Below, piece after piece: positions 2,675-18,077 of a stretch of 64,000 nucleotides of DNA. Under the pieces are notes generated by a model. The model ran no database searches, was not told the DNA's origin, and was given only the letters and a program-made list of their open reading frames with translations. The translations under genes and the position numbers were made by a program. The stretch covers positions 1 to 64,000 of the IMG/VR virus record IMGVR_UViG_3300032272_000007; one strand, 5' to 3'. This DNA comes from a virus. Its lineage: Duplodnaviria; Caudoviricetes. How positions within the stretch are numbered: position 1 is the stretch's first letter; each line of letters begins with the position of its first letter.

Positions 2675-2990
2675 TGATTTTTACACCGTTACGAATCAGG
2701 AACGGCATCCTGTTAAATTTTCTTGCTGCATTCCTCAAGTTGATTGCGAGAACGTATTCGTTATCTGGATCATGCCAAGCCTCTTGCTTTTTACTGGTAG
2801 TGCCAGTGTCAAAGTTAACCTGGTGGTTAACTTTTGAGATCTCCACCATACCAAACTTGAATGTTCGTTCGTTGAAGAAGTAGAGGTTTGCTCCCTTTGG
2901 GACGACAATATGACCTATGTGGGTTTTCTCCTTCCTCTGGTCAACTACCTCTTCAACTCGATCCTCATGTTTTGGCTCTAGGTCTTTCAT
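2589..2990 (-). CDS. Hypothetical protein (MKDLEPKHED...)
   Basis: Start moved to ATG 2990, which sits in the recurrent CCAAAGAAGCAATG junction. Confidence 0.65.
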   Translation of the reverse strand: MKDLEPKHEDRVEEVVDQRKEKTHIGHIVVPKGANLYFFNERTFKFGMVEISKVNHQVNFDTGTTSKKQEAWHDPDNEYVLAINLRNAARKFNRMPFLIRNGVKINVYDENKRQSKMEGQAAPPAESDGEGSV

Positions 2991-3079
2991 TGCTTCTTTG
3001 GAAGAAAGTCCCATTTCTTTACAGAGAATGACCTTGGGGTTATGTTCTTGTCGAACGTCCATTTGACAGTCTTGTCCAT
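2987..3079 (-). CDS. 30-aa ORF MDKTVKWTFDKNITPRSFSVKKWDFLPKKQ
   Basis: Starts in junction J2; its TGA overlaps the next ATG in junction J1. Confidence 0.5.
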   Translation of the reverse strand: MDKTVKWTFDKNITPRSFSVKKWDFLPKKQ

Positions 3080-3088
3080 GTTCTATTG

Positions 3089-3406
3089 TTAAAATGCAGT
3101 CGTTGCGATTAGGTCGGGTGTTGAGTAATCCTCTAATACCCTTTCAAAGGAGCAAATAATCTTGTACCCGCATGAGTAATCATCTTCATTATAGGATTCG
3201 TCCTGATCCTCTTCATCTGGTTCTGAGTCTTCAATGTCTAGTAGATAGCTGGTTTTTAATTCAGCTTTCTTTAGCCTCCTGACTCGCTTACGATCTGTCG
3301 GATCAGAGCAAGTGGTACTCTCGTGGTGCTGTAAAGCCTCATCCTTGCTATTAGCAAGGACCCAATCCTTTTCGCCGTCAAAATCAAATTCGTAAATTGC
3401 TTTCAT
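3089..3406 (-). CDS. Hypothetical protein
   Basis: 105-aa ORF in the operon, natural composition. Confidence 0.7.
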   Translation of the reverse strand: MKAIYEFDFDGEKDWVLANSKDEALQHHESTTCSDPTDRKRVRRLKKAELKTSYLLDIEDSEPDEEDQDESYNEDDYSCGYKIICSFERVLEDYSTPDLIATTAF

Positions 3407-3409
3407 GTT

Positions 3410-3640
3410 CTATTGTTCTAGTAAGTCCCGTGGGTCAAGGAATTCTTCACTATAAGAATCTACACTGTAGCTATCCGAACACTCCATCTTTAAGACCCTA
3501 CCAATTGATGTCCACCTTTCATTATACCAAATGTCTTTAGGCCACGAAACCCCATTAGCGTCCCGCTGTGCGGTACCGCCAAACTCTCTTCTTCCTGGTT
3601 CAATTGTAATAACGCAAAACCTATACTGCGACTCTTTCAT
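3410..3640 (-). CDS. Hypothetical cassette-like protein ending DLLEQ
   Basis: Framed by junctions J1 and J2. Confidence 0.7.
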   Translation of the reverse strand: MKESQYRFCVITIEPGRREFGGTAQRDANGVSWPKDIWYNERWTSIGRVLKMECSDSYSVDSYSEEFLDPRDLLEQ

Positions 3641-3719
3641 TGCTTCTTTGGTTTAATTAATTCAACATGCTTAAAAATATTTCTAAGCTCAATTATTTGG
3701 CTTTCATAAAAGTAAGGAG

Positions 3720-4148
3720 CTACATGTCCTCATTCTCCTTTTGGAGCTGCTGGATTTTGGATTGTTGCTCTTCAATCTTCATGGAACTCAAATTGGTCCC
3801 TTTGTAAAGTTTAACCTCCCCCTCCAACCGCTGTACCTCCTTGCGGAGTTTTTTGATTTCAATATTCTCTAAATCAACCTCAGCATCTGCACGACCTAAT
3901 GAATATGAATTAGCCTTTTCTTCCTCACGTAGCTTCATATTTGCGCCACGCAAATCGCTATTCTCTACCTCTTCCAATCCTCTATTAGCTTCTGAATCTT
4001 GGAGTTTATTCCGTAGCTCTGCGGTTTGGGATTCGAGCCAAGTAGAATATCTATTGCCTGACTCGGCGATCAATACAAATGATTCATCTTTATTGATTTT
4101 TTTACGATACTCGCTTCTTATCTTTTCAATCTCCTTACTCTTTTCCAT
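3720..4148 (-). CDS. Coiled-coil protein, paralog of 8049..8561
   Basis: Shares ESQTAELRNKLQDSEANRGLEEVENSDLRGANMKL and EVxRLEGE with 8049..8561. Confidence 0.75.
   Translation of the reverse strand: MEKSKEIEKIRSEYRKKINKDESFVLIAESGNRYSTWLESQTAELRNKLQDSEANRGLEEVENSDLRGANMKLREEEKANSYSLGRADAEVDLENIEIKKLRKEVQRLEGEVKLYKGTNLSSMKIEEQQSKIQQLQKENEDM
3931..4035. repeat. 105-bp exact direct repeat, copy 1
   Basis: Identical to 8332..8436 by base-by-base comparison. Confidence 0.95.
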
Positions 4149-4149
4149 A

Positions 4150-4362
4150 TCAATTAGTCTTTAGGTTCAGGGATTTTATCACAGCCGTAGTGTGCTCCTC
4201 TAATTCTCTTTCGAACCTTTGGTTGAGTTCTTTCATAACAGAGAGTCTACCACTAGCGTATGCCACTTTGTGCTCCTTCCAAAACCTATTCGCAAATAGC
4301 TTCTCCTCCTGCTTTATGTACGCGTGGATTGAATCAAATTTTGTTTCTATCTCTTTGCTCAT
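4150..4362 (-). CDS. Hypothetical protein (MSKEIE...)
   Basis: ORF bounded on both sides by junction J3. Confidence 0.7.
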   Translation of the reverse strand: MSKEIETKFDSIHAYIKQEEKLFANRFWKEHKVAYASGRLSVMKELNQRFERELEEHTTAVIKSLNLKTN

Positions 4363-4473
4363 ATCAATTAGTCTTTAATTTGAACTGTTCGGGATTTCCG
4401 AACAGTTGGATTCTCTGTTCTCATTACTCGTCTTTAGGGGGTTTTGGAGTTGTTATCCATGTTATTATATCTT

Positions 4474-5016
4474 TCATCCTTCCTTAATTTTTACCCAACC
4501 GTATTCTATTAAGTCCTCAATTGACAATCCCATCCAAGGTAAAGCGTAGCCTTTGGAGCGGAGGTGGTCAACAATTCTTATGTAGGAAACGCCATCATTT
4601 ATATTACTACCTACCTCTCCAATATTCCTCTTATAAGTGACCTTTTTTTCTCTGTGCTTTTTTTCTGGAAAAGTGGTTGAGGTATTAATGCAGCCGTATT
4701 TGTTTATCATACAGTATCTCATAATGTCTAAGTTGTCATGCGACTCCATCCAAACACCCCAATCATCACGGCGTGTTATTTTCCAATCGTATCTACCTTG
4801 TAAAAAAGCAAGGTGAGCCACCTCAATAGCGTCCTCGTCACTTATAGAGGATAGGGAAGTGAGTTCTAAGTAAGATTCTTCGAATAAATCCTTCTTTTTG
4901 AAGAGGTAATATGATACATCATTAGCGCTTCCCCATATTTTAACAGGCAAGACTCTTTGCCCCCAATACTGAGCGAAAAACTTTGCTTTGTTCTCTGGTG
5001 TGTTCTCTGCTTTCAT
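4474..5016 (-). CDS. Hypothetical phage protein
   Basis: 180-aa ORF with A-rich start context. Confidence 0.75.
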   Translation of the reverse strand: MKAENTPENKAKFFAQYWGQRVLPVKIWGSANDVSYYLFKKKDLFEESYLELTSLSSISDEDAIEVAHLAFLQGRYDWKITRRDDWGVWMESHDNLDIMRYCMINKYGCINTSTTFPEKKHREKKVTYKRNIGEVGSNINDGVSYIRIVDHLRSKGYALPWMGLSIEDLIEYGWVKIKEG

Positions 5017-5034
5017 TGTTCTTATTGGTTTGGG

Positions 5035-5160
5035 TTAACTGGGTATGTATGATTCGTTTGAATGCCAAAATTCAATGTGATTGTAATGATCATTTATCTG
5101 CATGCTGATAAGGCCGCAGTATGGACAATGGTGTCCTGGTTCTTTCTCTTCCTTACTCAT
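5035..5160 (-). CDS. 41-aa putative C2H2 zinc-finger peptide
   Basis: MSKEEKEPGHHCPYCGLISMQINDHYNHIEFWHSNESYIPS has C-x2-C-x12-H-x4-H spacing; start in junction J5. Confidence 0.55.
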   Translation of the reverse strand: MSKEEKEPGHHCPYCGLISMQINDHYNHIEFWHSNESYIPS

Positions 5161-5185
5161 TTGGTTCTGCTTTTTGGGTTCCAAA

Positions 5186-5392
5186 TCAAAACGGAATAGT
5201 ATACACCTTAAAATTAGTGTCGGTCAAGGCATCTGCTTTTATCGTTCTCAAATGCCCATTGCAAAAAATGTCTGTACCAAAAGTTTCAAACATATAATTC
5301 ACTTGGTCTTTATTAAAAATAGTGTTCCACGCAGGAACTCTTGAAAAGTTTCTGCGATTCCTATCTACATCTTGTTTCTCTGAATTATTCAT
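5186..5392 (-). CDS. Hypothetical protein (MNNSEKQ...)
   Basis: ATG at 5392 is more plausible than the upstream TTG. Confidence 0.65.
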   Translation of the reverse strand: MNNSEKQDVDRNRRNFSRVPAWNTIFNKDQVNYMFETFGTDIFCNGHLRTIKADALTDTNFKVYTIPF

Positions 5393-5408
5393 AATTTCTA
5401 ATTTTCGT

Positions 5409-5643
5409 TTACGCCTGCTCAAACATTTCCAGTTTCGATTTGAGGTATTTTGTCACCACTTCTTTCTGGTTGTCTTCAAGGTCATCCGTCACATTGATTT
5501 CATTGAGCAACTTTCCTATTGCCCCCCCACCTGGAAGTCATAGGCTGTTCGTTGATCGTGTCCAAAAGAGTCCATATTGATACTCTCGCCTCTACTTCTT
5601 GTTCTACATTTACTAATACTTCGATTTCGTCCATCATTGTCAT
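5409..5643 (-). pseudogene. 77-aa gene frameshifted at a G7 tract
   Basis: 235 nt (3n+1); deleting one G at 5522-5528 restores MTMMDEIEV...SRWGAIGKLLNEINVTDDLEDNQKEVVTKYLKSKLEMFEQA. Confidence 0.75.
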
Positions 5644-5668
5644 TTTGGTTCTGCTTTTAAAAAGTCGT

Positions 5669-5902
5669 CTATGGTGTAACCGAAGTATAATCGTCTATTT
5701 TCCTACCCATCCAATGACATAAAGTAGCCATTTTCTCAACGGTTAATGTGTTCCCAGCGAATGCCCTGCTCACTGTTGGGTGGCTAACACCCGATAGTTC
5801 GGCTATTTTTCTTACTGATAGATTTTCCTTCAGCCTGAATTGCTCAGCGTGTTTCCAATCGTTAAGATCGTCCTTGAACTTGTCTTTATCTATTTTAACC
5901 AT
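5669..5902 (-). CDS. XRE-family HTH transcriptional regulator
   Basis: LSVRKIAELSGVSHPTVSRAFAG...EKMATLCHWMG. Confidence 0.85.
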   Translation of the reverse strand: MVKIDKDKFKDDLNDWKHAEQFRLKENLSVRKIAELSGVSHPTVSRAFAGNTLTVEKMATLCHWMGRKIDDYTSVTP

Positions 5903-6220
5903 GAAACAAATATAATCATTAATGAAACACAATTCCAACTTTCTTTCAAAAAACTTTAGGCATTGTATACAGTCCGTTAAGGGTGGCGTGGTCGTAGCGT
6001 ATCAATACACAGCCGTAACTCATTGTGTCGGTCGTTGACGTACTCAATTCTATCGTCGAACAGGAGGAAGCTACGTTTATCAACAAAGTAGAATTTAGGA
6101 GTATGTCATATCTTATTTGCGCTTCCTGTGAATGGTGTTGAGTCGTCTATGTGCATTGACTTTGCAGCCTTAAAGATCCTTATGTCTAAGTATCCGTGCA
6201 CCGTAACTTTTTCAAAGTTA

Positions 6221-6580
6221 TTATGTTAAAGGAAATTCATGGGGTAGTATTGTACTCCAAGTTTTTCCACCTTCAATTTTCTCTGGCTTCCAATCGGATG
6301 GTATGGTTTTAGCGAATAGTAAAGCCATATCTATATTCCAGAATAATCCAAGTTGCTGAACTTCATGTTGCTGAACTTCATCTTTATTTTTGTGGTTGTC
6401 TTCAATTTTTGCAACTACATAAAGCCCTGTTTGTTCATCTTCCGCTTTGCAAATTAATACACACTCATGTACATCATAAGCAGGATTGTCTTGTGTTGGA
6501 ATTTCTCCAAAAGTCTGTGTTCTAAAATCTACTATTTCCATTGGTAATAATTTATTAAGTTTATTAATTGATTTATCCAT
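6221..6580 (-). CDS. Hypothetical protein
   Basis: 119-aa ORF; start follows junction J4. Confidence 0.7.
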   Translation of the reverse strand: MDKSINKLNKLLPMEIVDFRTQTFGEIPTQDNPAYDVHECVLICKAEDEQTGLYVVAKIEDNHKNKDEVQQHEVQQLGLFWNIDMALLFAKTIPSDWKPEKIEGGKTWSTILPHEFPLT

Positions 6581-6644
6581 TGCAGCTTCTTTTATGGTTT
6601 GGTTTCATTTCATTCGTGTTTAGTTACCAGCTAATCCGAAAGAA

Positions 6645-7022
6645 TTAAAAAGCAAAGCCGTCGCACAAATACACATTATCATTGCCTTTGCCTGTTCCAA
6701 ATTCAGGATTACCATCGCATTCGATAGGGTGCTTGGAACAGGTATCACATAAATTTAGTTTCTCCTTATTTCGTTTCAGCGCCTCCTCCTTTGTTAGCCC
6801 TCCGTGTCCTACACAAGCTAACCCAGAAACAAACCCACCATAAGTTCCATCTAAAAATAGACGCTCACCAGTGTAAGGGTCATTGGAATACTTACCGCCT
6901 TTGTGTTTACTGTATGCGGGTTTGTCGCAAAGGCCATCTGGGCATCCACCGCTCCACATTGGTACAGAACATTTCCCCTCTCCTTTTCCGTTCACATGAT
7001 TGTGATTTTTATCTGATGCCAT
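6645..7022 (-). CDS. Cys-rich hypothetical protein
   Basis: Multiple Cys, including CxxC. Confidence 0.7.
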   Translation of the reverse strand: MASDKNHNHVNGKGEGKCSVPMWSGGCPDGLCDKPAYSKHKGGKYSNDPYTGERLFLDGTYGGFVSGLACVGHGGLTKEEALKRNKEKLNLCDTCSKHPIECDGNPEFGTGKGNDNVYLCDGFAF

Positions 7023-7072
7023 AATATTTGCTTTTTAATTTGTGTTTTCAATTTAAGTTAAGCCGTGTTTCA

Positions 7073-7450
7073 CTATTCCACGCCTCTTTTACCTCTTCTT
7101 TCATTATTTCGTTTCATGGTTGGTGATAGAACCTTAAAACATTCCTTGCAAAACCAATTTGAATCATCGTCTTGAGTCATATTGTCAACATTAAGTTCTT
7201 TGTTGCATGAAGTGCATTTCATTGAACACTCTTCTGCTTCTAGTAAGTCCACATGAAATGAGTGACGCTCTTTGACTCCTAAATCATCTAAGTGATCGCT
7301 CACAACATTGTAATAATTATTTTGTTCGTCCCTGTATTTGTCGGTGTCGAAAGCAAAAGTTCCCTCTACAAAATCCTCAATTCTGAATCTGGTTTTACCG
7401 TTAACTATCGGCCTCTTTTTGTAGTAGTGATATTTTAGATTTTTTATCAT
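7073..7450 (-). CDS. Hypothetical protein with C-terminal Zn ribbon
   Basis: CTSC...WFCKEC. Confidence 0.7.
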   Translation of the reverse strand: MIKNLKYHYYKKRPIVNGKTRFRIEDFVEGTFAFDTDKYRDEQNNYYNVVSDHLDDLGVKERHSFHVDLLEAEECSMKCTSCNKELNVDNMTQDDDSNWFCKECFKVLSPTMKRNNERRGKRGVE

Positions 7451-7462
7451 GACAGTATTGGT

Positions 7463-7708
7463 TTATTGTTCTAGTAAGTCAGGGGTCAACTCTTTGAAAA
7501 TGTGAGGAAACCAAACTACTGGATAGTCACAATCCAATATCTTAACCGTCTGCAATTCATCTGTATAAAGTTGTCCCGTTCTCCTTCCTACGAAAGATGG
7601 TCTGATATTGTAATCCACATTGACTTTCTCACCAGCTTCACGCCTCCAATCTGAACCCATTACAGAAATAGGCTGATTCAATGTTAATTTATTGGGTAGC
7701 TCTCTCAT
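7463..7708 (-). CDS. Hypothetical cassette-like protein ending DLLEQ
   Basis: Framed by junctions J1 and J2. Confidence 0.7.
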   Translation of the reverse strand: MRELPNKLTLNQPISVMGSDWRREAGEKVNVDYNIRPSFVGRRTGQLYTDELQTVKILDCDYPVVWFPHIFKELTPDLLEQ

Positions 7709-7720
7709 TGCTTCTTTGGT

Positions 7721-8038
7721 TTAATTAATTCTTTTCTTCAACTCATCACAGTAGCAGAGGAAGGAGAATTTTATAGTCTTGGATGAAAAATCTTGTGTAC
7801 TGTCTGTGATCGCTAAGTAATAATCTCTCTCACCTCTGGCAGTCTTTCCATGAAGCAAGTCGCCGTATTTAATTCCACCAAAATTTTGTACAGGCATTAC
7901 ATGACTACCTTTACCAGTGTTATAATCCAATCCGCTTTTAGCGTCCCATATTGTCAATGGATAATTGACCTCTAACATGTCACCCGCCTTCTCTGTACAG
8001 ATTCCACCCTTAGATATTTTGTCTGCTCTTACTTTCAT
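7721..8038 (-). CDS. Hypothetical protein
   Basis: 105-aa ORF between J4 and J1. Confidence 0.7.
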   Translation of the reverse strand: MKVRADKISKGGICTEKAGDMLEVNYPLTIWDAKSGLDYNTGKGSHVMPVQNFGGIKYGDLLHGKTARGERDYYLAITDSTQDFSSKTIKFSFLCYCDELKKRIN

Positions 8039-8048
8039 CTCTCTTCTT

Positions 8049-8561
8049 TTATGGTTTGGTTAGGAGGGCTTCGAATCTCATTTTCATTTTTGCTATGCGA
8101 TCAGTGTAATCAGTGCGCCAAATCTTTTCCTCATTTTTAATCCCTTTTCGTAACCGAGTGTTCTCCTTTTGCAGCTGCTTGATTTTCTGGTCCCTCTCTG
8201 CTTTTTCTATTGCGTGACCTAAAATTAGTTTTCCATTCTCCCCCTCCAACCGCTCTACTTCCTTCCTTTCCTTTTCCAGAAGTCCAGATAAAAGTGAGTT
8301 TTGAGAATCAAGTTCGGTTAGTTCCTTGAGGAGCTTCATATTTGCGCCACGCAAATCGCTATTCTCTACCTCTTCCAATCCTCTATTAGCTTCTGAATCT
8401 TGGAGTTTATTCCGTAGCTCTGCGGTTTGGGATTCGGCGAATGTTGGACCATTATAAAAGTGAAACATTTCGTTTATGATCACCCTGCAAGGGGTATCCC
8501 CATACATAGCTTCCCACTGCTTTAAATCATTAGTGTATTCCTTATCTATCTCTTTGCTCAT
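8049..8561 (-). CDS. Coiled-coil protein, paralog of 3720..4148
   Basis: Shares the 105-bp exact repeat; starts in J3, ends in J4. Confidence 0.75.
   Translation of the reverse strand: MSKEIDKEYTNDLKQWEAMYGDTPCRVIINEMFHFYNGPTFAESQTAELRNKLQDSEANRGLEEVENSDLRGANMKLLKELTELDSQNSLLSGLLEKERKEVERLEGENGKLILGHAIEKAERDQKIKQLQKENTRLRKGIKNEEKIWRTDYTDRIAKMKMRFEALLTKP
8332..8436. repeat. 105-bp exact direct repeat, copy 2
   Basis: Identical to 3931..4035. Confidence 0.95.
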
Positions 8562-8566
8562 ATCAA

Positions 8567-9712
8567 TTAGTCTTTTTCATCATCAAAGACCTCATCAGCA
8601 CTTTCATTGATCTTGAAAATTTCTGGATTCAGATAGAATCTCTTATTGCCATTTTTGTCTGGCTTATTGGAGAACGCCTTAACATCCTCTTGGTCTGGCT
8701 GGCGGAGGTCTGCTTCATGGAAGTCGTACAAGCTCAACTTCAATAAAGATTGGACTCTTTGTATATTGTGCTTCCTTGGTTCAACGAACGCCTTAACCTC
8801 ATCGCTCAATTTCTTATAGATAGTAAGCAGCTTCCATTGGCGATCGGTAAGCTCCATAGCTTCAAACTCCTCTTTCTGGTAAATATTATCATTGACCCAA
8901 TCGGCTTCTTTCTCGGTACCAACAAGTTCAGGCTCAAGGGCCTGCAGTTTCCCCACTCCTTCCTGCTGAGGAGCGGTCATTTCATCTGGGTTATACAGAT
9001 AATAGAACTCGATGCCATACTCTTTTTTGATGGCTTTAGCAGCCTCAACGACCTTCCAACTAATAGCAGAAAAATATTGTATTTGCTCTTGTATCTTGAT
9101 GACAGTAGGATCGTTGGCGTACATGGTCACTACCTCGAGTTTGTACCCATCTATCCAAATAAGGATCCTCGCGTACTCCAATTCACTTATAAGTAAACCC
9201 ATGCACACCTGAGCGATGAATGAGGGGCTCACACTGTTTGGGTATCGGTTCGCCTCCATAGAGGAGGTATTTTTACATTCCAACGTCCCTTTTGCGACAA
9301 GGTGTCCGTCTTCATACTCGTACTCCTTCCCGTCTGGAGAGAAGAATAGCCATGGGTATTTATCGTTGACCTCATAGTATGAAGCACTACGGAGATGGTT
9401 TTTCTTTTTACCCGCCTCCATGTTATCATACATCACCATCTGGTCGGGGTTGGAGTGATCCCAGTATCGGTACTTTTCTATGATATTACCCTCCTCATGC
9501 TGGCCAGCCTTTGAGCGCACGTTTCCAGAAAACTCTGTAACATTCTCACCTATCTTTCCAAGGTGTACCTGGATGGGTGCGGTGTAGATATATTTGATAA
9601 GTCTCCCAATATACTGGGCTAGAACTCCGCCAATTTCAGAGGCTCCGTATCCGTTCTTTCGGAACTGATACCACTCCTTACTGTGCTGCTTTAGTTGTAC
9701 TCGTTTAATCAT
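8567..9712 (-). CDS. YqaJ/lambda-exonuclease-family recombination nuclease
   Basis: QHSKEWYQFRKNGYGASEIG, GQHEE, PWLFFSPDG, LECKNTS, AQV motifs. Confidence 0.88.
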   Translation of the reverse strand: MIKRVQLKQHSKEWYQFRKNGYGASEIGGVLAQYIGRLIKYIYTAPIQVHLGKIGENVTEFSGNVRSKAGQHEEGNIIEKYRYWDHSNPDQMVMYDNMEAGKKKNHLRSASYYEVNDKYPWLFFSPDGKEYEYEDGHLVAKGTLECKNTSSMEANRYPNSVSPSFIAQVCMGLLISELEYARILIWIDGYKLEVVTMYANDPTVIKIQEQIQYFSAISWKVVEAAKAIKKEYGIEFYYLYNPDEMTAPQQEGVGKLQALEPELVGTEKEADWVNDNIYQKEEFEAMELTDRQWKLLTIYKKLSDEVKAFVEPRKHNIQRVQSLLKLSLYDFHEADLRQPDQEDVKAFSNKPDKNGNKRFYLNPEIFKINESADEVFDDEKD

Positions 9713-9714
9713 CT

Positions 9715-9927
9715 TTAAATAATTTTCGTTTTGTCTGTAATAGCTCCCATTACTTGAAGCTGTGACCGTATACTCTGCCCAGTCGTACCATACATGATAA
9801 TGATACTTCCCTTCAATCCCATATCTTCAAGATTGATTTTGATGGGCTGATTATTTTTCATCCGCTTGATGTTCTCCTCAGTGAGACCAAACAGGAGGTC
9901 GTTGTTACTCAGTTTTGCTTTAATCAT
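9715..9927 (-). CDS. Hypothetical protein
   Basis: 70-aa ORF in the operon. Confidence 0.65.
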   Translation of the reverse strand: MIKAKLSNNDLLFGLTEENIKRMKNNQPIKINLEDMGLKGSIIIMYGTTGQSIRSQLQVMGAITDKTKII

Positions 9928-10207
9928 GGAATTTGCTTTTATGTTCGTTTTTGGTGCAAATAGTGTCTACATCTCGGATAACTTCACTTAATTTGAACAC
10001 TTCCTCCTTGAGCTGTTCTGGTGCTCTGGCTAACAGTTCTTTCTTCATATCATGCAAGTCCTTTATCTCCACATCATTAATATCAAAATCCATTTTCTCT
10101 AAAGCACGGGCTAACGCCGACCAACCAAATCGGCGACCTCCAGTCATGATTATTATTTTCTTTTTCATCCGTCGTAACTTATAGACATCATCCCTCTTCC
10201 CATTCAT
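9920..10207 (-). CDS. Hypothetical protein
   Basis: Overlap-coupled ORF. Confidence 0.55.
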   Translation of the reverse strand: MNGKRDDVYKLRRMKKKIIIMTGGRRFGWSALARALEKMDFDINDVEIKDLHDMKKELLARAPEQLKEEVFKLSEVIRDVDTICTKNEHKSKFHD

Positions 10208-10382
10208 CTGGTGAAAAATTGCTTCTTATGTAGTCCATCACATCCTCTTGTACTGGAGTTGGATCCCTATCTGACTTCTTCTGAGCAAACCAGAACCATT
10301 TCCAGAAGTCAAGAGGTACTTCATCCATTGATTTACCCCTGTGTGGCCCAAGTGGCATTTGATCGTAGCTAGATAGTATCAT
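10188..10382 (-). CDS. DUF3820-like small protein
   Basis: MPLGPHRGKSMDEVPLDFWKW resembles the MPFGKHKG...VP..YL.W motif. Confidence 0.6.
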   Translation of the reverse strand: MILSSYDQMPLGPHRGKSMDEVPLDFWKWFWFAQKKSDRDPTPVQEDVMDYIRSNFSPDEWEEG

Positions 10383-10701
10383 TATCTCCGCATTTTTTCT
10401 TGGCTATTCTAAATAATTCAAAAACTTTAGACCACTTCGGATCGTCCTCTACCTGGTATCGATAATTCTCCCAGATTCGATGTTCCTCCATGGTCATCAA
10501 CACTATGAACTCTTTTACCAGCTTCAAAGCTGGGCAGGATCCCTTACTCAGTACGTGACTGAATACAAAGAACATGCTCGGGTGAAAGTTGTAGTTCAAC
10601 GGCTCACCCGAGACAAAGCTAATATGTTCCCGTTCTTTCCAGATCTCAAGGAACACCTTGCCCTGATCATTAAGTCTTATCTCCTTCGGTGGAATTTGCA
10701 T
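10369..10701 (-). CDS. HNH-like nuclease
   Basis: FSHVLSKGSCPALKL...IVLMTMEEH resembles degenerate HNH proteins of Bacteroidota phages. Confidence 0.5.
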   Translation of the reverse strand: MQIPPKEIRLNDQGKVFLEIWKEREHISFVSGEPLNYNFHPSMFFVFSHVLSKGSCPALKLVKEFIVLMTMEEHRIWENYRYQVEDDPKWSKVFELFRIAKKKCGDNDTI

Positions 10702-11620
10702 CTACTTCAAATACGGATCCAGCCCCAGCTGCGACATTCTGATTACTCTGGTCCAACTCCTTTACCTTCTTTTCCTCGGCGGTCTCCACCGCATCAATAT
10801 CCAAAGTCATTTGCTTCTCATCCAGATTGGCCAGGATGGTTTTTCCAACCTCTTCTTTATCTTGAGCATACACCCCTAGCTTGGATTCCTTGGTTTTAGG
10901 CAGTTTCTTGGCCAGCTGCTTGATCGTGGACTTCATCCACATCCACCCCATCGGATCGTTTACTACTTTCCATGCTTTACCTCCGCCCGACCCACCGTTG
11001 GATTTAGCTTCAATGGCTGCAATCTCAGAGGCATTCATGTAAACCCACGTTGGAAATTGTTTGTTTTTCAGCCATGCTATGGCATAAGCTCCCACCCTTT
11101 TGGATCCAGTATGATCCTTCGCTGGTATGTGGATTAGGTTGGGGTTAGCGCCCTTCACCTCGCTGAACTCATCAGCTTCATAGACAATTTGGCAATCGAT
11201 TTGCTCTATTTCTGGGTGCCTACCAAACAACTCAATCCATCCTTGATACCCAATCTGAAACTGAGCCATCTTAACCCAGGTGTTATCGACTTTCGACTTA
11301 TACCCAATGATCCAAGAAAGACCAAACGGAGTGTTGGGTGTGAGACCAAGGGTGGCAGAGACAAGGAATGCACCAAATAATGATCTAACCTCACACTCCA
11401 ATAGTGCAGGATCATTCTTGATTCCAGTAATCACCTCCCCTATAAACTCTTTCGCTGCAATTCCCTTTGATTCCAAAAGCTGGGATAGTTGATCTTCATA
11501 CTTCCACATGGTGGCTTCAAAGATTTTTACTGCCACATCTTTGTCACCTCCTGGTTGTAGAAGGGAGCCCTCTAATTTCGTGACTGCTACTACTGGTTTT
11601 TTCTTCTCTGTTTCAGACAT
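10670..11620 (-). CDS. recT: RecT-family single-strand annealing recombinase
   Basis: GLTPNTPFG, AQFQIGYQGWIEL, VYEADEF, GAYAIA, MWMKSTIKQLAKKLP. Confidence 0.92.
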   Translation of the reverse strand: MSETEKKKPVVAVTKLEGSLLQPGGDKDVAVKIFEATMWKYEDQLSQLLESKGIAAKEFIGEVITGIKNDPALLECEVRSLFGAFLVSATLGLTPNTPFGLSWIIGYKSKVDNTWVKMAQFQIGYQGWIELFGRHPEIEQIDCQIVYEADEFSEVKGANPNLIHIPAKDHTGSKRVGAYAIAWLKNKQFPTWVYMNASEIAAIEAKSNGGSGGGKAWKVVNDPMGWMWMKSTIKQLAKKLPKTKESKLGVYAQDKEEVGKTILANLDEKQMTLDIDAVETAEEKKVKELDQSNQNVAAGAGSVFEVDANSTEGDKT

Positions 11621-11864
11621 TGATCTTTTTTTCTACAACGTTAACAAAATCATTTAATGTACGGCAATTATCCGCTTCCTCATCTGGAATGCTGATGTTG
11701 AACTCACTCTCAAGTTCCATCAAAAGCTCTACAAAATCCAACGAGTCGACTCCTAGAGCGCCACTCAACGGGTTGTCTAGGTTTTCTCTAACTTCGGTTT
11801 CTTCGAGACCAAGTTTATCAACGGCAATCTTGACTGCCTTAGTAGTAATTAAATCTGTGTTCAT
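11613..11864 (-). CDS. acpP: Acyl carrier protein (phage-encoded)
   Basis: LGVDSLDFVELLMELESEFNISIPDEEA with an intact phosphopantetheine Ser. Confidence 0.92.
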   Translation of the reverse strand: MNTDLITTKAVKIAVDKLGLEETEVRENLDNPLSGALGVDSLDFVELLMELESEFNISIPDEEADNCRTLNDFVNVVEKKINV

Positions 11865-12475
11865 GTGCTAATTTTTAGTTTACTAATTTGATTCAAAACT
11901 ATATTCTTGTGGTATAATATCTCCTGAGCAGAGGGCTTTAAATACAATTCATCTGATTCAAACGGAATCCCAAATAATTTACTGTGATCGCTTCTACGAC
12001 CTAGCTCCTCTACAATCCAAATGGATCCAGCAGAGCAGCTTACAGTATGAATATCACTGTCACTCAGCTCCACTATTCCACCAATTGGCAAGACGTAATC
12101 GCTACAATTAATATATGTGTCACACACATATTCAAGGCCTTTTCCCTCTTCCAGTATTGAATAATAGTCGTATTCTGGCAGTAACACATTGCCTTGAAGT
12201 GGGGGGTACATCCTAGTGGCCATGTGATGATTGATAACACCACCAAGTGGTGTTAATCGTATTGGATACTTATGGTCATGAAGTTGAATATCAAATGGTT
12301 TTATCTCATTTGCTGAGATAAAAACTCTAATGAATTCTCCAGATTCTTCACCGACTACAATAAGAGAAAATAGCCCCTTGGCGTGGCAATTTTTAAGACT
12401 CCTCGCCAAACAGTCTCTATTTGGGGATTTAAGTTTGTTGGATACACAATCTAGGATGTCTTTTAGCTTACTCAT
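11861..12475 (-). CDS. Putative cupin-fold metalloprotein
   Basis: LHDH...IHTV His arrangement resembles cupin/dioxygenase metal sites; ATGA-coupled to the ACP. Confidence 0.45.
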   Translation of the reverse strand: MSKLKDILDCVSNKLKSPNRDCLARSLKNCHAKGLFSLIVVGEESGEFIRVFISANEIKPFDIQLHDHKYPIRLTPLGGVINHHMATRMYPPLQGNVLLPEYDYYSILEEGKGLEYVCDTYINCSDYVLPIGGIVELSDSDIHTVSCSAGSIWIVEELGRRSDHSKLFGIPFESDELYLKPSAQEILYHKNIVLNQISKLKIST

Positions 12476-13644
12476 GATGTTTGAAGTTTGATAATTTGAT
12501 TCTTTTCAGCCACTAACCGCTCGTTTGAGACGTGGCCATAGTATTTTTCAGTAGTGCTAACGGATTCATGACCAAGGAATTGGGACACAGCTGTTAGACT
12601 GTGCCCCCTTTCCAGCATTAACACAGCAAAACTGTGACGCAGGACATGAGGAGTCACCTTTCGGCCCACCAACTCACTAAGTGGTCCTTTACAGAAGGCG
12701 CTGAACCTAGCATATTCAGCCTCATGTTTGCTCACAATAATCTTCCCGTCTGGCTCGAGGAAATTTCCTACCGGTAACCAGTTATTGAATGTCTTCTTGA
12801 AATCCGCCGCTAAAATCAACTCAATGATTCTATTCAATTCAGGGTATACTATTACCCTCGCCTGTACCTGAGATTTATGCCTGTTGTACACTAGGAACTT
12901 GTTACCCTCCAGATCTATGGTAAACTCGGGCTCTGTGCAGCAGTCGGCAAATGAATAGCCTGAGTAGGCTAAGAATAGGGATAGCAGGCCGTAGTGCTCA
13001 TCGGCGTACTCCCAGAGCTTGGTAATTACTTTTGGATTGATAAATTCCATAATGTTCGATTTCTTCTTTACCTGGTAGATCTTCTTTGCTTTGAATGGGT
13101 TGAATCTAATACTGTCAGGCCACTCATCCAAAGGAAAATCTTCAATGACCGTTTCCACTACCATTTTGATGAAGTTGATGTAAATGGAAATAGTATCGTT
13201 GGCATATCCTGATCTATTCAGCCATCCACGGTAACCCTTAGCTAATGATGTCGACAACATGGCCAGAGGAATGTCTTCCTGCGCGCCTAGCCCACTCAAA
13301 TACCTTTGAAAGGCACTCTGACAGTGGCGATATGTGGTCTTGGTATGATTAGACAGTCCTTTCAGTTCATCGGTTGTTCTCACGTAGTATTCACAGGCCT
13401 GGGAGACCGTGTATGGTGCGCCCGTCTTAATAGAGGAGGATTTCATGAGTGAGAATGCCAACTCTGGTGATGATGGAGACCCTGTTTTAATGATCTCCTC
13501 CAGCTTGCGGGTATAGTCCTTAATTTCTTGGCTCCTCCTCCAGTCTCTTTTCTTAACTATTCCAGTGGACTTATCCTTGGTGGATCCGCAGATGGTTAGT
13601 CTGCAGTAGATGTATTTCTCACGTCTGATGAAGAAGGTGATCAT
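12472..13644 (-). CDS. Tyrosine recombinase/integrase, Bacteroidota (IntDOT-like) type
   Basis: TPHVLRHSFA, FLGHESVSTTEKYY; first catalytic Arg replaced (SGYSFAD) with RHK downstream; N-terminal arm/SAM-like domains. Confidence 0.92.
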   Translation of the reverse strand: MITFFIRREKYIYCRLTICGSTKDKSTGIVKKRDWRRSQEIKDYTRKLEEIIKTGSPSSPELAFSLMKSSSIKTGAPYTVSQACEYYVRTTDELKGLSNHTKTTYRHCQSAFQRYLSGLGAQEDIPLAMLSTSLAKGYRGWLNRSGYANDTISIYINFIKMVVETVIEDFPLDEWPDSIRFNPFKAKKIYQVKKKSNIMEFINPKVITKLWEYADEHYGLLSLFLAYSGYSFADCCTEPEFTIDLEGNKFLVYNRHKSQVQARVIVYPELNRIIELILAADFKKTFNNWLPVGNFLEPDGKIIVSKHEAEYARFSAFCKGPLSELVGRKVTPHVLRHSFAVLMLERGHSLTAVSQFLGHESVSTTEKYYGHVSNERLVAEKNQIIKLQTS

Positions 13645-13982
13645 TTCTTGTGTTTGTAAACTCCGTTTTCATCTGGCTCACCCCAGTCTCTCCCTTCATT
13701 AATCTCCATTTTGCTGAATGCGGCCTCTAGTAACTGGTTGGCAGTGATATTAATACGCCTCGCACTCCCAGTCAGCAGAATCAAACAGTCAGCATACTCT
13801 TCCAGAGCTATCTCTTTGTTCATATCACCAGCTGCAAGCTCAACAATTGTTTCATCCACCTCATCTTTCAAATGACACATAGGGGCTACTGGATCATTAC
13901 AATGCATAGGAAACACTCGTTTTGCAAAATCATAATTCCAGTCCATTAGGTTCTGGAGTGTTATCTCGTCTGGTCTATTCAT
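13641..13982 (-). CDS. DUF550/MazG-like dNTP pyrophosphohydrolase
   Basis: HLKDEVDE...EEYADCLILL...KMEINEGRDWGEP. Confidence 0.85.
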   Translation of the reverse strand: MNRPDEITLQNLMDWNYDFAKRVFPMHCNDPVAPMCHLKDEVDETIVELAAGDMNKEIALEEYADCLILLTGSARRINITANQLLEAAFSKMEINEGRDWGEPDENGVYKHKK

Positions 13983-14196
13983 TTCCTTGTTTTATGTTGA
14001 TTAATTCAATCACAGCACCCGCATCATACATTACTTCTTGATACATGCGCTCAGGGATTACCTCCAGTGTGTTGCTTCTTGGTGCTCCTCCAACCTGAAT
14101 AATTCTACAATTGGCCAATGTGGTGGCAACTTCCTCTTGACTAAGGCTGAATGTTGGGACAAATACGTACCTGAATTTTGGGGCTAGTGAGACCAT
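13975..14196 (-). CDS. Hypothetical protein
   Basis: 73-aa ORF preceded by the AACTTCAAAC leader and a -7 promoter. Confidence 0.7.
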   Translation of the reverse strand: MVSLAPKFRYVFVPTFSLSQEEVATTLANCRIIQVGGAPRSNTLEVIPERMYQEVMYDAGAVIELINIKQGNE

Positions 14197-14223
14197 AATG
14201 TTTGAAGTTGATAGCTAAATTAT

Positions 14224-14231
14224 CAAATATA
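14224..14231 (-). promoter_or_regulatory. Bacteroidota sigma70 -7 element TATATTTG
   Basis: TAnnTTTG in a divergent intergenic gap, with TTTG motifs upstream. Confidence 0.65.
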
Positions 14232-14279
14232 GTTCAATTTACAGGCAAACAAATCAAAATACTTTTAGTTTAGCCACAG

Positions 14280-14750
14280 ATGAAACCAGAAACCAAGCAT
14301 TTGAGCGCCCTCCTTATTAGCACCATGGGTAAAAGCATTAAGCATGTATCTGAAAAGTATTTGAAGAGGGAGTATGCGGCCTTTCACAGCCGTGTTAAGA
14401 AGGGAAAGATTCACGTCCTGGACTACATTAAGCTATCCATCTTAACTGGAAAATCTCTCGATGAGATCCTAATGCAGGATCCTAGATATGCTGATGACAT
14501 CAAGAAAATACGTGAGGAGTTTGGAATTCCTGAAACTGATGATGAGGCTGTAGATACTGAGCTGACCCCAGAGGCTCAGGATCTCATAAAGGATGTTCTT
14601 GGTCTTGGTGAGAAAAAGCCAAATTTATGTGACTCGGATGGCGCTCAAACTGCTGGAGACAACCTCCCCATCGCCCAAAAAGAGGAGGAAGCCCAAGAGG
14701 CAGGGGAAAAGGTGGAGATTAGTGATGACTTTCCTTTTGAGGATGTGTAG
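14280..14750 (+). CDS. Divergently oriented putative repressor (HTH-like N-terminus, acidic tail)
   Basis: Only plus-strand gene in the early block; 'KLSILTGKSLDEIL' resembles an XRE C-terminal helix pair. Confidence 0.5.
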   Translation: MKPETKHLSALLISTMGKSIKHVSEKYLKREYAAFHSRVKKGKIHVLDYIKLSILTGKSLDEILMQDPRYADDIKKIREEFGIPETDDEAVDTELTPEAQDLIKDVLGLGEKKPNLCDSDGAQTAGDNLPIAQKEEEAQEAGEKVEISDDFPFEDV

Positions 14751-14998
14751 TTGATATTTCTTTATATCTGACTTTTGTCCAACTTCCACACTTATGACAA
14801 ATAGCTTTGTATACTATTGGTAGAATATCTCCCTCATCGTTAGGATGACATTTATAGCAAAGTCGTACTGTCATTTTTCTGTTTTTTCTGTTGCGTGGTA
14901 CACTCCACATCCTTCCCAAACCTCTTCCCACCACCAGTTCTCTGGATCTGGGACGGTGATCAAACACACCTGGTCTTTGACGAATTCAAATGGCTGCT

Positions 14999-15283
14999 TC
15001 ATTCAAGGGTGAATTTATGTTTCTCAAAAATTGCTTTGGCTCTGTCTGAGTCAGACTTGGGGCCACACCTATAATTTCCGTCATGATCATAGAATCCACG
15101 CTTCAAGGCCAAAAGATCTCTCTCCTTATGGATTTCTATCCACCCTCCAGCGTATTCCCCCGGTCTCCGACACCTTTGGTTCGGCTGAGCCTGGCAGTGG
15201 GGACATTCTACCTCAAAAGGTGGATCCTGTGGGAACGTGTGTCCGCAGGATGAGCAGTCAATAGGTTCTCCAATTTTACCCAT
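14999..15283 (-). CDS. Zinc-finger protein
   Basis: CSSC, CPHC, C-x-x-P...H. Confidence 0.7.
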   Translation of the reverse strand: MGKIGEPIDCSSCGHTFPQDPPFEVECPHCQAQPNQRCRRPGEYAGGWIEIHKERDLLALKRGFYDHDGNYRCGPKSDSDRAKAIFEKHKFTLE

Positions 15284-15312
15284 CTATACCATTGATAATT
15301 TTTCTTTTTCCA

Positions 15313-17103
15313 TTATGCTGCTTTTTTAACATTCATAATCTCTTTCATCTTATCCATTCTGCAGGCCACCATCGCTTTCACCAGCTTAGGAGGCACCGAG
15401 TTACCAATGAATCGCTTCTGGTCCGTCTGTGTGCCTCTGAGCTTGTACCTTGAGCCGAATCCTTGGATGTTGAGCAGTTCAGGAACTCGTAACATCCTCA
15501 TCTTAACATCAGACAGCCCATGAAGAGCCATAAACAACTTGATCTTCTTGGTGTACTCGGAGTCATCTTCGTAGATGATGATGCCATATCCTTCGATAGA
15601 TGGCTCCGCCTCTACCAGAGATGGGGGAGCTTTGTCCATTCGGGCGATCAGCGTGAAGCACGGCTTATCCGCCTCGTTCCCCTTGCTTTTGTATTGAGGG
15701 TTGTACAGGAAGCACTTAGAATCTGAACTAAGTTGTTGCTTGTCTATAAATACGATAGACAGCCTGTCTTTTGTTGTCAATGTGTCGGCAGGCCTCTCTA
15801 TGTCGTGAGTTATCCCAGTACCATAGTACTTGCTTAAAAACACCACCGCATGGTGATCCTTGGTTGTGATAGCTCCAGTGGGATCTTCAATAGACTGGCT
15901 TTGATGGCCACCTGAGAAGTACTTGGATAGGAATACTATTGAATGATGATCCTTGGTCATCAGTGTGCCTATCGTCTTATCTAACTCATGTACTCCACCA
16001 TTGGAGTAATGCTCCATTAATAATTCCACCTGAGCCAGAGCTCCGCCACCAAATGAGGTAATTGATCCTAAAGGCTCATCAGTTCCTTTGACCTTACCGT
16101 TCGGTCGTCCAGAAAAGTACTTCATGATAAACTCAGGCTGAACAATAGCTAATCTATTCTGAGTGGTTATGGTTGGAGCTGCTCCGTCGAGGTCAACGGG
16201 ATTACTAACTCCTCCTCTTGTGTTGGAAAGATACTTGGAAATGAACTCGGGCTCTTTACCCTCACCTACATGCTTGATCAATCCAACGTACAGGCGCTCT
16301 AATGTGTTCTCGCTAAGATCTTTCTTCCTTCCAAATATGCTACGCCCCTTGTCTTCAAGGTTCAATGCTGGACGCACAGCCAACCACTTGCGTACCTTCT
16401 TACCAAACAGCCCGCCATTAGACTTAGATGGATCTTTGGCGTGGGTGGCCTCTGGCCAGGTATATGGTAGATATGGTTTCTTGAACTGCCCAAAGTATCG
16501 GACACGGCTAGTCCGTGCACCAAAATCAGCAGCGTTAAATATTCGATGATCATAGTCATATCCATAGTCATCACAGATGTGCTGCAGCCATCTCCTGTAA
16601 TCTCTACCATTCTTCTTAGACTCTGGGATCCAGTGGTACTCGTTGTTCTGTCTGAACTTGAGATCTGATCTGTCGACATGAGATTTCTCGCAAGCAATAC
16701 GGAGAGGTCCCCAGCTCATGAACTCTACTACATTTTCAATGTCAATGTAATCTGGATCAATGGCAGCTATGTACCTGTACAGATGTTCGGCCAACGTTCG
16801 GCTATCAGCGTCCCGGCTCTCGCCTCCCTTAGCTTTGCTGAAATGTGTGCACTCCAGGGATGCCCATAGGCAGATGATGGCATTTGGATCGTTCGCCCGT
16901 ATGTTACGCACCAACCGAGCAAGCTGTTCAACATTGAACGTCTTAATGTCTTCGGTGAAGTGGAGGACATTCTTGTGATTGTCGTAGTGGCTCTTGATTG
17001 CAATAGGATCGTGGTTAATGCAGGCTATCACTTTGCCGCCAGCTCTGGCTATGCCAGTGGTTACGCCGCCAGCCCCGCAAAATAGGTCAATGTAGTAGAT
17101 CAT
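15313..17103 (-). CDS. DNA (cytosine-5)-methyltransferase with tandem variable-region repeats
   Basis: IDLFCGAGG, WASLECTHFS, IENV, RTSRVRYF, IGNSVPP; about 6 internal 'P.gTiTTKD' repeats. Confidence 0.95.
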   Translation of the reverse strand: MIYYIDLFCGAGGVTTGIARAGGKVIACINHDPIAIKSHYDNHKNVLHFTEDIKTFNVEQLARLVRNIRANDPNAIICLWASLECTHFSKAKGGESRDADSRTLAEHLYRYIAAIDPDYIDIENVVEFMSWGPLRIACEKSHVDRSDLKFRQNNEYHWIPESKKNGRDYRRWLQHICDDYGYDYDHRIFNAADFGARTSRVRYFGQFKKPYLPYTWPEATHAKDPSKSNGGLFGKKVRKWLAVRPALNLEDKGRSIFGRKKDLSENTLERLYVGLIKHVGEGKEPEFISKYLSNTRGGVSNPVDLDGAAPTITTQNRLAIVQPEFIMKYFSGRPNGKVKGTDEPLGSITSFGGGALAQVELLMEHYSNGGVHELDKTIGTLMTKDHHSIVFLSKYFSGGHQSQSIEDPTGAITTKDHHAVVFLSKYYGTGITHDIERPADTLTTKDRLSIVFIDKQQLSSDSKCFLYNPQYKSKGNEADKPCFTLIARMDKAPPSLVEAEPSIEGYGIIIYEDDSEYTKKIKLFMALHGLSDVKMRMLRVPELLNIQGFGSRYKLRGTQTDQKRFIGNSVPPKLVKAMVACRMDKMKEIMNVKKAA

Positions 17104-17376
17104 TTATAGTTTTTTGTTACTGTACAAGTCAATAGGATTAGAGATGAAGTTATCAAACCATCTGGTTTCGAGATCATCTTTGTTAAGTACTAGAAAGGTT
17201 TGAGCTACAGCCGTATCTCCTGGTAGAACATCTGCATTACAGAAGTCACAGATATACACGCCTTCACATTCTCCTTTTACCAACATAACACGCTCATTCT
17301 CATATCTGTTTGGGTTGGGAAACCTCTCTTTTTTGGCATCATCACCACATTTTTCACACAGTAATTCACATTTCAT
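17104..17376 (-). CDS. Cys-rich hypothetical protein
   Basis: CEKC, CDFC. Confidence 0.7.
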   Translation of the reverse strand: MKCELLCEKCGDDAKKERFPNPNRYENERVMLVKGECEGVYICDFCNADVLPGDTAVAQTFLVLNKDDLETRWFDNFISNPIDLYSNKKL

Positions 17377-17379
17377 TGG

Positions 17380-17574
17380 TTATCTAATTTGGTTGAAGAA
17401 ATAGTACACAGCCGCCTTAGTAGGACCAGCCATGTTGTGGCCAGCCAACCATTGGCTAACCTTTGATGGCGAGGTGTTCACACCTTCCGCCAGAAGTTTG
17501 TTACTTACTCGCTTCTCATCCTGCATGGATCTAATCCACTCGGGGGTTACTAGGTCAAAGTCTATTGTATTCAT
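17380..17574 (-). CDS. XRE-family HTH protein
   Basis: SNKLLAEGVNTSPSKVSQWLAG. Confidence 0.75.
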   Translation of the reverse strand: MNTIDFDLVTPEWIRSMQDEKRVSNKLLAEGVNTSPSKVSQWLAGHNMAGPTKAAVYYFFNQIR

Positions 17575-17735
17575 TAGAATATTGTGAATTGTTCGTTAAA
17601 CATGATGTCAGATGTGTGAATTGTTCGGTAGTGGCCATTTCCCACACGGCATATAGCCCAGTTATCATTCCATTTGTGTATGAGATGAAATAGCTTCGTT
17701 ACTTTGTAGTTGCAGTAGTGTCTAGTCTTGTCCAT
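17574..17735 (-). CDS. 53-aa ORF (MDKTRHYCNY...)
   Basis: Starts in junction J2 with the same MDKT start as 2987..3079. Confidence 0.55.
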   Translation of the reverse strand: MDKTRHYCNYKVTKLFHLIHKWNDNWAICRVGNGHYRTIHTSDIMFNEQFTIF

Positions 17736-17738
17736 GTT

Positions 17739-18077
17739 CTATTGTTCTAGTAAGTCAGGGGCGACATATCCACAATTACGACAAATTCTCCTTGGAATTA
17801 TATCAATCTCATTATCTACAACAAATAGATGTTTTCCTGTTGAATCCTCTTTGCAATCTGCGTCTCTCATTGCTTCTTTGGGTTTAATTAATTCGCGGAA
17901 CCTTATCACCAACTCTCCTATTAAGAGGTCATAATCTTCGTCTGGTCTAGCTGGAATGTGCATAGTGGGAACTTGGTGTGATTCACTCTTATAAATCTCG
18001 TCCGTAATTTTATCCACCTTCTTAACCAGTTCTTCGTCTGAAAGTGTGCATTTTCTAAAAGTTGCTATTGTATTCAT
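17739..18077 (-). CDS. Hypothetical protein, an apparent in-frame fusion across junction J1, ending DLLEQ
   Basis: Internal ELIKPKEAMRD is J1 plus one extra C. Confidence 0.7.
   Translation of the reverse strand: MNTIATFRKCTLSDEELVKKVDKITDEIYKSESHQVPTMHIPARPDEDYDLLIGELVIRFRELIKPKEAMRDADCKEDSTGKHLFVVDNEIDIIPRRICRNCGYVAPDLLEQ

Follow-up and report, generated by a model that had tools for sequence, protein, structure and literature searches.

In the early region of an uncultured phage (IMG/VR record IMGVR_UViG_3300032272_000007), short direct repeats lie across the boundaries between small genes. The window, i.e. the whole stretch of DNA analysed, comprises bases 1–64,000 of this 74,756-nucleotide (nt) record, and the whole analysis rests on one metagenome-assembled phage genome. 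The repeats form four families, J1 to J4, which are probably boundary or linker sequences within which genes were inserted, duplicated and replaced by homologous crossover. The repeats, their positions at gene junctions, the unrelated sequences at their flanks, the chimeric gene ends and the duplication of junctions around single genes are shown. These loci are a clear instance of mosaicism as already known from phages and do not amount to a new type of system.

Repeats at the gene junctions

The genome contains 269 pairs of shared 14-mers, compared with about 15 in shuffled sequences. Dispersed exact repeats of at least 18 nt are confined to three loci, A (~4.4–2.9 kb), B (~8.6–7.4 kb) and C (~18.1–17.7 kb), except for one 21-nt pair (12125/27298). 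Together with a 105-nt patch inside two paralogous genes, J1 to J4 account for almost every long dispersed repeat in the 74.8-kb genome, and the junction repeats have self-BLAST E-values of 1e-4 to 1e-8. Every copy straddles a stop codon, a start codon or both, and each family covers both kinds of codon, as an earlier note on this DNA had stated for J1 and J2. Exact identity amounts to 14–31 nt, and from one copy to the next the neighbouring sequences bear no relation to each other. All junction repeats are direct and lie on the coding strand, which is the minus strand for all genes and junctions described below; no copy was found on the other strand. The number of copies is small, with just three or four per family. 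Copies A and B are separated by 4,068 nt in J1, about 4,060 nt in J2 and 4,199 nt in J3, and copies B and C by about 10.2 kb.

The J1 copies listed in the earlier note were all recovered. GAATTAATTAAACCAAAGAAGCAATG is identical at 3638–3663 (copy A) and 7706–7731 (copy B), and the exact match between both copies reaches 27 nt (3637–3663 and 7705–7731). Copy A contains a stop in all three frames and the ATG of an open reading frame (ORF) of 76 amino acids (aa). Copy B contains the TAA stop of the gene g105b, in another frame, and the ATG of an 81-aa ORF. Copy C (17863–17894, with 17868–17894 described earlier) has one extra C (CCC at 17880–17882) and is located inside a fused ORF of 112 aa. A core of J1 had also been reported at 2988–3001. 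This exact partial copy (A', CCAAAGAAGCAATGAAAGA) extends to 19 nt (2983–3001) and includes the end of a 30-aa ORF starting with MDKT as well as the ATG of a 133-aa gene (2589–2990). The right end of J1 is sharp (ATG-ARA-GA) and the left end varies in length.

J2 was likewise found at all four positions. Copy A (3404–3427) consists of ..DLLEQ*, the spacer AAC and the ATG of the gene g105a, and it matches 17733–17756 exactly over 24 nt. Copy B (7464–7485), which encodes ..PDLLEQ*, is identical to 17740–17761 over 22 nt. Its stop codon is TAA and the spacing from the stop to the ATG (7450) is 13 nt, in contrast to 3 nt in two other copies. The longest copy, C (17724–17761, 38 nt), is tiled by the three others, with copy B on the left, copy A in the middle and the partial copy A' on the right. 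A' (3068–3090) directly follows the stop of g105a and comprises the ATG and the first codons of the 30-aa MDKT ORF; it is exact over 23 nt with 17724–17746 and over 14 nt with 3404–3417.

Among the junctions the longest exact match belongs to J3 (AAAGACTAATTGATATG...), of which copy A (4346–4376), located before the gene g70, shares 31 nt with copy B (8545–8575). In the latter the YqaJ-like gene ends and the gene X_B starts. A third copy of 18 nt is found before X_A (4146–4163). J4 (AACCAAACCATAAAAGAAG, 19 nt) is a J1-like variant before g105b (8043–8061), with an exact copy before the gene 6221–6580 (6586–6604) and a sequence match of 79% at 18063–18096.

Stop codons before the ATG occur in three of three frames in J1 (TAA, TAA, TGA) and in two of three frames in J2 and J3. 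Hence an upstream ORF is still terminated if it is joined in a different phase. As a phase-safe feature of the junction the three-frame stop is suggestive only, because it is not very improbable in an AT-rich 27-mer.

For J2 a common origin of the copies at the DNA level is indicated by the codons themselves. For D-L-L-E-Q the three copies do not differ in their choice among synonymous codons, and the bases following the stop are common as well. Identical synonymous and non-coding bases show common descent and not convergence on a peptide. Moreover, the ends of the identity tracts are ragged and specific to each pair of copies. A 17-mer of J2 gave five matches in IMG/VR, which were rejected as chance matches since they lie inside ORFs and not at stops.

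The 21-nt pair outside the J loci, the only long dispersed repeat there, is an exact direct repeat (CACATATTCAAGGCCTTTTCC, plus strand, 12125–12145 and 27298–27318) and not a junction. It connects a 204-aa gene beside an ACP-like gene with the gene 27040–27399.

Genes between the junctions

Three ORFs, in the following called cores, run from J1 to J2. Core A (3410–3640; 76 aa, MKES...DLLEQ*) is an ORFan. Core B (7463–7708; 81 aa, MREL...DLLEQ*) has two outside orthologue clusters. Core C (17739–17870; 43 codons, MRDA...DLLEQ*) is in frame with the upstream gene and forms the end of the fused 112-aa ORF. Two MDKT ORFs are present, and the 30-aa one (2987–3079) ends with PKKQ* within the J1 core. 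All these ORFs agree with the earlier description. Homology among the cores had been set in the earlier note as one of the results that would refute shuffling. The cores are unrelated by sequence, with no BLASTP match between them and with Smith-Waterman scores within those of shuffled sequences once the shared termini are left out. The Atlas model of core A has a pLDDT of 0.50 and no homologues of this core were found. A comparison of the folds of the cores would therefore be uninformative.

Core B provides indirect evidence that the J sites are recombination joints. Its two orthologue clusters (P0074 and P0075) are 44% identical, and the homology extends from LPNKLTL to F(K/T)EL, corresponding to residues ~4–74. 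Both clusters lack the first codons of core B (MRE) and its last seven (TPDLLEQ). Consequently, the J-derived ends were grafted onto a gene that already existed.

The gene g105a (3089–3406, phrog_5459) has native ends and is bordered by J2 on one side and by J2', the partial copy A', on the other. Its full-length identity with gp033 of Cellulophaga phage phi13:2 (Pachyviridae; L040:5995–6306) is 48%, both termini are conserved in gp033, and the acidic motif SEPDE..YNE.DYSCG.KII is common to both proteins. This kinship is a hint that the host may belong to the marine Bacteroidota. The identity of J2 ends exactly at the ATG of g105a and resumes right after its stop, so that the gene is flanked by the 14-nt sequence AACAATAGAACATG (3404–3417 = 3077–3090). 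Without g105a, locus A has the order core, J2 and MDKT gene, which is the order of locus C. Two further genes are enclosed in a similar manner. g70 (4150–4362), whose first five codons are identical to those of X_B, lies between J3 and J3', the 18-nt repeat, and g105b (7721–8038) lies between J4 and J1. Junction copies on both sides of g105a, g70 and g105b represent a signature of the insertion of single genes by crossover at a junction. Pfam and PHROGs searches with the small flanking genes gave nothing on their functions apart from phrog_5459 for g105a. Leads from the Atlas for the function of g105b were discarded because they were below a usable score.

X_A (3720–4148, 142 aa, coiled-coil-like) and X_B (8049–8561, 170 aa) are paralogues with 51% identity in BLASTP (E 2e-30). 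Self-BLAST and the repeat inventory revealed a patch of 105 nt inside both genes (3931–4035 and 8332–8436) that is 100% identical, and outside this patch the two are ~50% identical. X_A ends at 142 aa, X_B continues for ~35 residues more.

Downstream of X_A and out of frame with it, the startless tail of 30 codons mentioned in the earlier note was found (3637–3727), ending with ELIKPKKQ* in J1. It weakly resembles the internal X motif FAESQTAELRN (E 2e-4 in one pairwise test, chosen post hoc) and may be a remnant of a third X allele that an unequal crossover left behind. An assignment of the tail to the X_C family described below was tried and rejected since the hidden Markov model of the family does not recognise it.

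X_C (17871–18077), the gene upstream of core C, belongs to a widespread family of small phage proteins (MNTIATFRKCTL...IPARPDEDYDLLIGEL..RF), and the 5' half of J1 plausibly stems from its variable C-terminal tail. The family comprises 57 homologues besides the query (P0016–P0072; loci L015–L039), all from uncultured phages and none from cultured ones, and its pattern MNTIATFRKCTLSDEEL...IPARPDEDYDLLIGEL..RF matches no Pfam or PHROG model. A core of ~60 aa, ending with ...DYDLLIGEL..RF, is very conserved, and the C-terminal tail is hypervariable in sequence and length. Elsewhere in the family the tail reads ..RFRELIK, ..EEIIKPG.. or ..DELKKPKI. The 5' half of J1 (..R-ELIKPK..) is thus plausibly the native 3' end of an X_C-family gene. 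The corresponding bases of locus B do not encode such a tail, being non-coding or out of frame with the gene before them, and A' retains just 19 nt of J1. For core B, X_C and g105a alike, the homology to outside orthologues ends at the J borders. Because of its extra C, copy C has lost the frame-1 stop, and X_C and core C are fused into an ORF of 112 aa; the earlier note had claimed this fusion. About one third of the family members carry unrelated C-terminal extensions, some of them Cys-rich; the fusion may therefore be real. A natural fusion of X_C to a Cys-rich extension homologous to core C was considered for L034 and L035 and rejected, since the tblastn extension is weak and crosses a stop.

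Among 25 IMG/VR loci with an X_C-family gene, several hold repeats of their own, and three (L023, L017 and L031) were examined. L023 repeats AACCGATTATTAACTTTTAAAAA over 23–36 nt at three successive junctions flanking the X_C homologue (284–319, 561–583 and 926–961). In L017 a promoter-like leader with a Bacteroidota-type TAAATTTG box is repeated (3059–3095 and 3343–3379), and L031 contains larger duplications (864–1042 and 3713–3890).

Proposed crossover at the junctions and competing explanations

To account for these features, we propose a linker unit of 19–31 nt that consists of one or more upstream stops, a short unstructured spacer, the ATG and 1–4 codons of the next gene. Within the phage lineage, such linkers would have spread by copying from one junction to further ones. 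A crossover at a junction would then duplicate the junction on either side of the incoming gene. The crossover may be an unequal exchange involving concatemers or co-infecting relatives, or the integration of a one-gene circle; the circle route is modelled on the mini-circles of T4-type PeSL cassettes (PMC2839356). A pair of crossovers at J1 and J2 would replace the ORF between them, and crossovers could also duplicate or delete blocks, e.g. the tandem modules A and B. The recipient would keep its first 2–3 and its last 6–7 codons (PDLLEQ*), so that translation of the tightly packed co-directional array would be preserved.

The exact tracts measure 27 nt in J1, 22–24 nt in J2 and 31 nt in J3, with 14–19 nt in J4 and the partial copies. 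The minimal length for efficient pairing is quoted as 23–27 bp for Red-beta in contrast to 31–34 bp for RecA (De Paepe et al. 2014, PMC3945230). Because the tracts have the minimal pairing length of Red-beta and the phage encodes a RecT-family protein and a YqaJ-like exonuclease, this pair is a fitting catalyst. As in Red-beta/RecT systems, a temperate phage with a RecT/exonuclease pair is concerned, and the tracts are mostly below the length quoted for RecA. However, relaxed recombination by Red-beta/RecT was studied between diverged homologous regions of hundreds of base pairs (PMC3945230; Martinsohn et al. 2008, PMC2327257), whereas here a lone island of 19–31 nt of homology is present. We infer RecT/YqaJ purely from these properties, and catalysis by the phage's own pair is plausible but unproven. 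Of the two drivers suggested in the earlier note, this one is retained. For the tyrosine recombinase there is no support, since inverted repeats, attC-like structures and a fixed core are all missing at the J sites and the identity tracts have ragged ends. We also infer that exchange at the J sites is still going on.

Several points weigh against shuffling at linkers. The repeats derive from a single metagenome-assembled genome for which the collections yielded no close relative, so that exchange at a J site between genomes was not seen. The families have only 3–4 copies and the junction repeats are absent from a distant relative of 76.7 kb, which leaves the possibility of a few recent accidents instead of a maintained 'grammar'. 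In addition, a junction cannot reach a new position for the first time without an illegitimate or duplicative event. Finally, direct repeats of this size beside RecT should cause deletions, and nothing shows that such repeats are tolerated or selected. The gene-shuffling reading of the earlier note has therefore to be divided. Linker-mediated shuffling is likely in view of the grafted ends and the insertion signatures, but the statement that it is more systematic than lambdoid linkers does not hold with 3–4 copies per family at only three loci, none in the distant relative, and with the precedents in PMC3029335 and PMC2839356.

A more far-reaching version, to which we give perhaps one chance in a handful or slightly better, regards J1 and J2 as a maintained pair of docking arms instead of scars. 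With these arms of 22–31 nt, at its minimal pairing length and below that quoted for host RecA, RecT/YqaJ would move small ORFs among the three docking sites of the genome and between co-infecting relatives, each ORF being exchanged between a head with three-frame stop and ATG and a tail with PDLLEQ*, stop and ATG. If true, the phage would possess a natural 'recombineering cassette' system by which translation of an anti-host gene array is left undisturbed.

The J sequences were further inspected for signals. A sigma-70-like promoter or a terminator was found at none of the copies, and reading the J sequences revealed no Bacteroidota-type TAnnTTTG box. The J context folds no better than shuffled sequences (z from -0.15 to +2.65). 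No inverted repeats were detected, the sole palindrome being the 8-nt TTAATTAA inside J1, and attC-like structures, R boxes or a fixed two-sided core are absent from the J sites. Without promoter, hairpin or inverted repeat the J sequences are neither PeSL-like nor integron-like, and nothing in them points to the tyrosine recombinase.

It is improbable that J is kept identical as a functional RNA or DNA signal, such as the operator of a translational repressor or an element for coupling or re-initiation, with recombination as a by-product. J does cover the translation initiation region and lacks structure in the mRNA, as expected of such a region. Furthermore, the phage has another shared leader box, AACTTCAAAC, and J1-like variants (AAACCAnAAAGAAG) stand ahead of several other starts. 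However, the length of identity is specific to each pair and enters the coding sequence on both sides, which fits descent better than selection for a fixed motif, and bases of J1 that encode protein in one copy are out of frame or non-coding in others. The 3–4 copies are few for such a signal, no candidate regulator was identified, and the junction duplications flanking single genes are left unexplained. A link with the AACTTCAAAC leader box or with a putative small RNA (30633–30726) was also tried and rejected, as the motif is a different one and has no complementarity to J1 or J2.

We assign a similarly low probability to the view that loci A, B and C are old, diverged duplicates of one module (X gene, small gene and MDKT gene) and that the identical patches result from recent short gene conversion. 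X_A and X_B are true paralogues, loci A and B agree in gene order and orientation, and RecT could convert short patches. Duplication with gene conversion may well explain the 105-nt patch of 100% identity in X genes that are otherwise only half identical. The junctions fit this view poorly, because conversion depends on homology already present at the flanks, and J1 and J2 have none around them. Besides, the cores have no residual similarity, the outside orthologues of core B lack the shared termini, and g105a is a member of a foreign family with native ends.

An artefact, in which the tandem arrangement and the sharp joints arose from the co-assembly of strain variants of one phage population, is very improbable. 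The genome does come from a single metagenome assembly of IMG/VR class linear, and the 105-nt patch can confuse a de Bruijn graph. Repeats of 19–31 nt, however, are shorter than ordinary reads and final k-mers, so that an assembly should bridge them; the contig is closed on itself by an overlap of 122 nt and matches the relative in size. A mis-join would itself require shared junctions in real genomes. Least credible of all are integron-like cassette sites for the tyrosine recombinase encoded between loci B and C, since, despite small co-directional and repeat-flanked ORFs, inverted-repeat arms, an attC-like fold and a GTTRRRY box are missing, the tract ends vary without a fixed core, and the enzyme has an ordinary phage-integrase architecture (PF00589 and a SAM-like domain) with its gene within the RecT operon.

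Relation to known systems and the phage genome

Linker-mediated exchange at J1 to J4 has close precedents. Short conserved boundary sequences at the module junctions of mosaic phages are already described (PMC3029335, citing lambdoid work), although most mosaic joints in phages have no shared sequence (PMC3029335). Like these linkers, the J repeats are short nucleotide-identical stretches exactly at gene boundaries with unrelated genes alongside, for which homologous recombination by general or phage recombinases was proposed. They differ in that the copies occur within one genome and not between genomes, in a phage with a probable Bacteroidota host, and in that J enters a few codons of both neighbours. 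As a result, unrelated proteins share their start and a PDLLEQ end. The PeSL cassettes of T4-type phages (Arbiol et al. 2010, PMC2839356; Comeau et al. 2014, PMC4122927) are similar in another respect. They, too, are intergenic motifs in multiple copies, which span the interval from the stop of one gene to the start of the next among small ORFan genes in a plastic early region, and genes are inserted, deleted or replaced when two copies recombine. Integration of a one-gene circle at a copy would leave the gene between two copies, as at g70, g105a and g105b. In contrast to PeSL, J has no promoter, stem-loop or terminator, measures 19–31 nt, is partly coding and is present in few copies.

How far short boundary sequences drive the shuffling of phage genes is still debated. 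Several copies of the same joint beside RecT/YqaJ, with tracts at the minimum for annealing, are convenient natural test substrates, and they extend the boundary-linker phenomenon to phages that probably infect Bacteroidota. For annotation, the linkers explain the common start and the C-terminal PDLLEQ of unrelated small early proteins, and they caution against taking these shared ends for a protein motif.

The phage itself is an uncultured temperate phage of ~75 kb, and its genome is probably complete. CheckV gives a completeness of 93%. The contig ends (1–122 and 74634–74755) overlap by 122 nt at 99.2% identity, and the record, although classed as linear, hence probably represents a complete circular or terminally redundant genome. 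Bases 1 to ~30,600 form a single minus-strand array of tightly packed, mainly small genes. It includes DnaB (363–1832), the YqaJ-like exonuclease (8567–9712; PF09588 with E 3.2e-5, above the cut-off, but its homologues carry PF09588), the RecT-family annealing protein (10670–11620; PF03837, E 2.9e-31), the tyrosine integrase (12472–13644; PF00589 and PF13102) and a C5 methylase (15313–17103). The genes for RecT and YqaJ are thus located between the junction loci.

No match at the DNA level to a cultured phage was obtained with megablast and blastn against 50,697 phage records, and close relatives were found in none of the phage, IMG/VR, metagenome and genome collections. Scans of IMG/VR with a 23-mer of J1 and with the YqaJ-like, 281-aa, core-B and X_A/X_B proteins or alignments revealed no close relative, and scans of metagenomes and GTDB genomes only kin of 26–34% identity. 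Homologues of single proteins reach 52–78% identity (P0002–P0005, and P0016 for X_C). Of these, P0002 is 78% identical to the YqaJ-like protein, P0005 is encoded on a contig of 75 kb and P0016 on one of 87 kb. The nearest kin is the 76.7-kb contig mentioned above, which belongs to a metagenome-assembled Roseivirgaceae genome. Its proteins are 25–47% identical and the gene order integrase-RecT-YqaJ-DnaB is kept. In the phage the interval between YqaJ and DnaB amounts to 6.7 kb with two tandem mosaic modules, compared with 3.2 kb in this distant syntenic relative, which fits a local expansion. With the Roseivirgaceae contig and one Cellulophaga phage gene as nearest kin, the host is probably a member of the Bacteroidota.

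A perfect stem-loop with a 10-bp stem (AACUGUUCGG-AAAUC-CCGAACAGUU; 4383–4407, minus strand) marks the border of the tandem modules B and A. It is situated in a gap of 111 nt between the gene 4474–5016 and copy A of J3, no T-run follows, and it could be a processing site or an attenuator. Farther along the early array, two adjacent small genes (20542–20772 and 20769–21092, minus strand) are diverged tandem paralogues with 29% identity (E 3e-9) and similar leaders.

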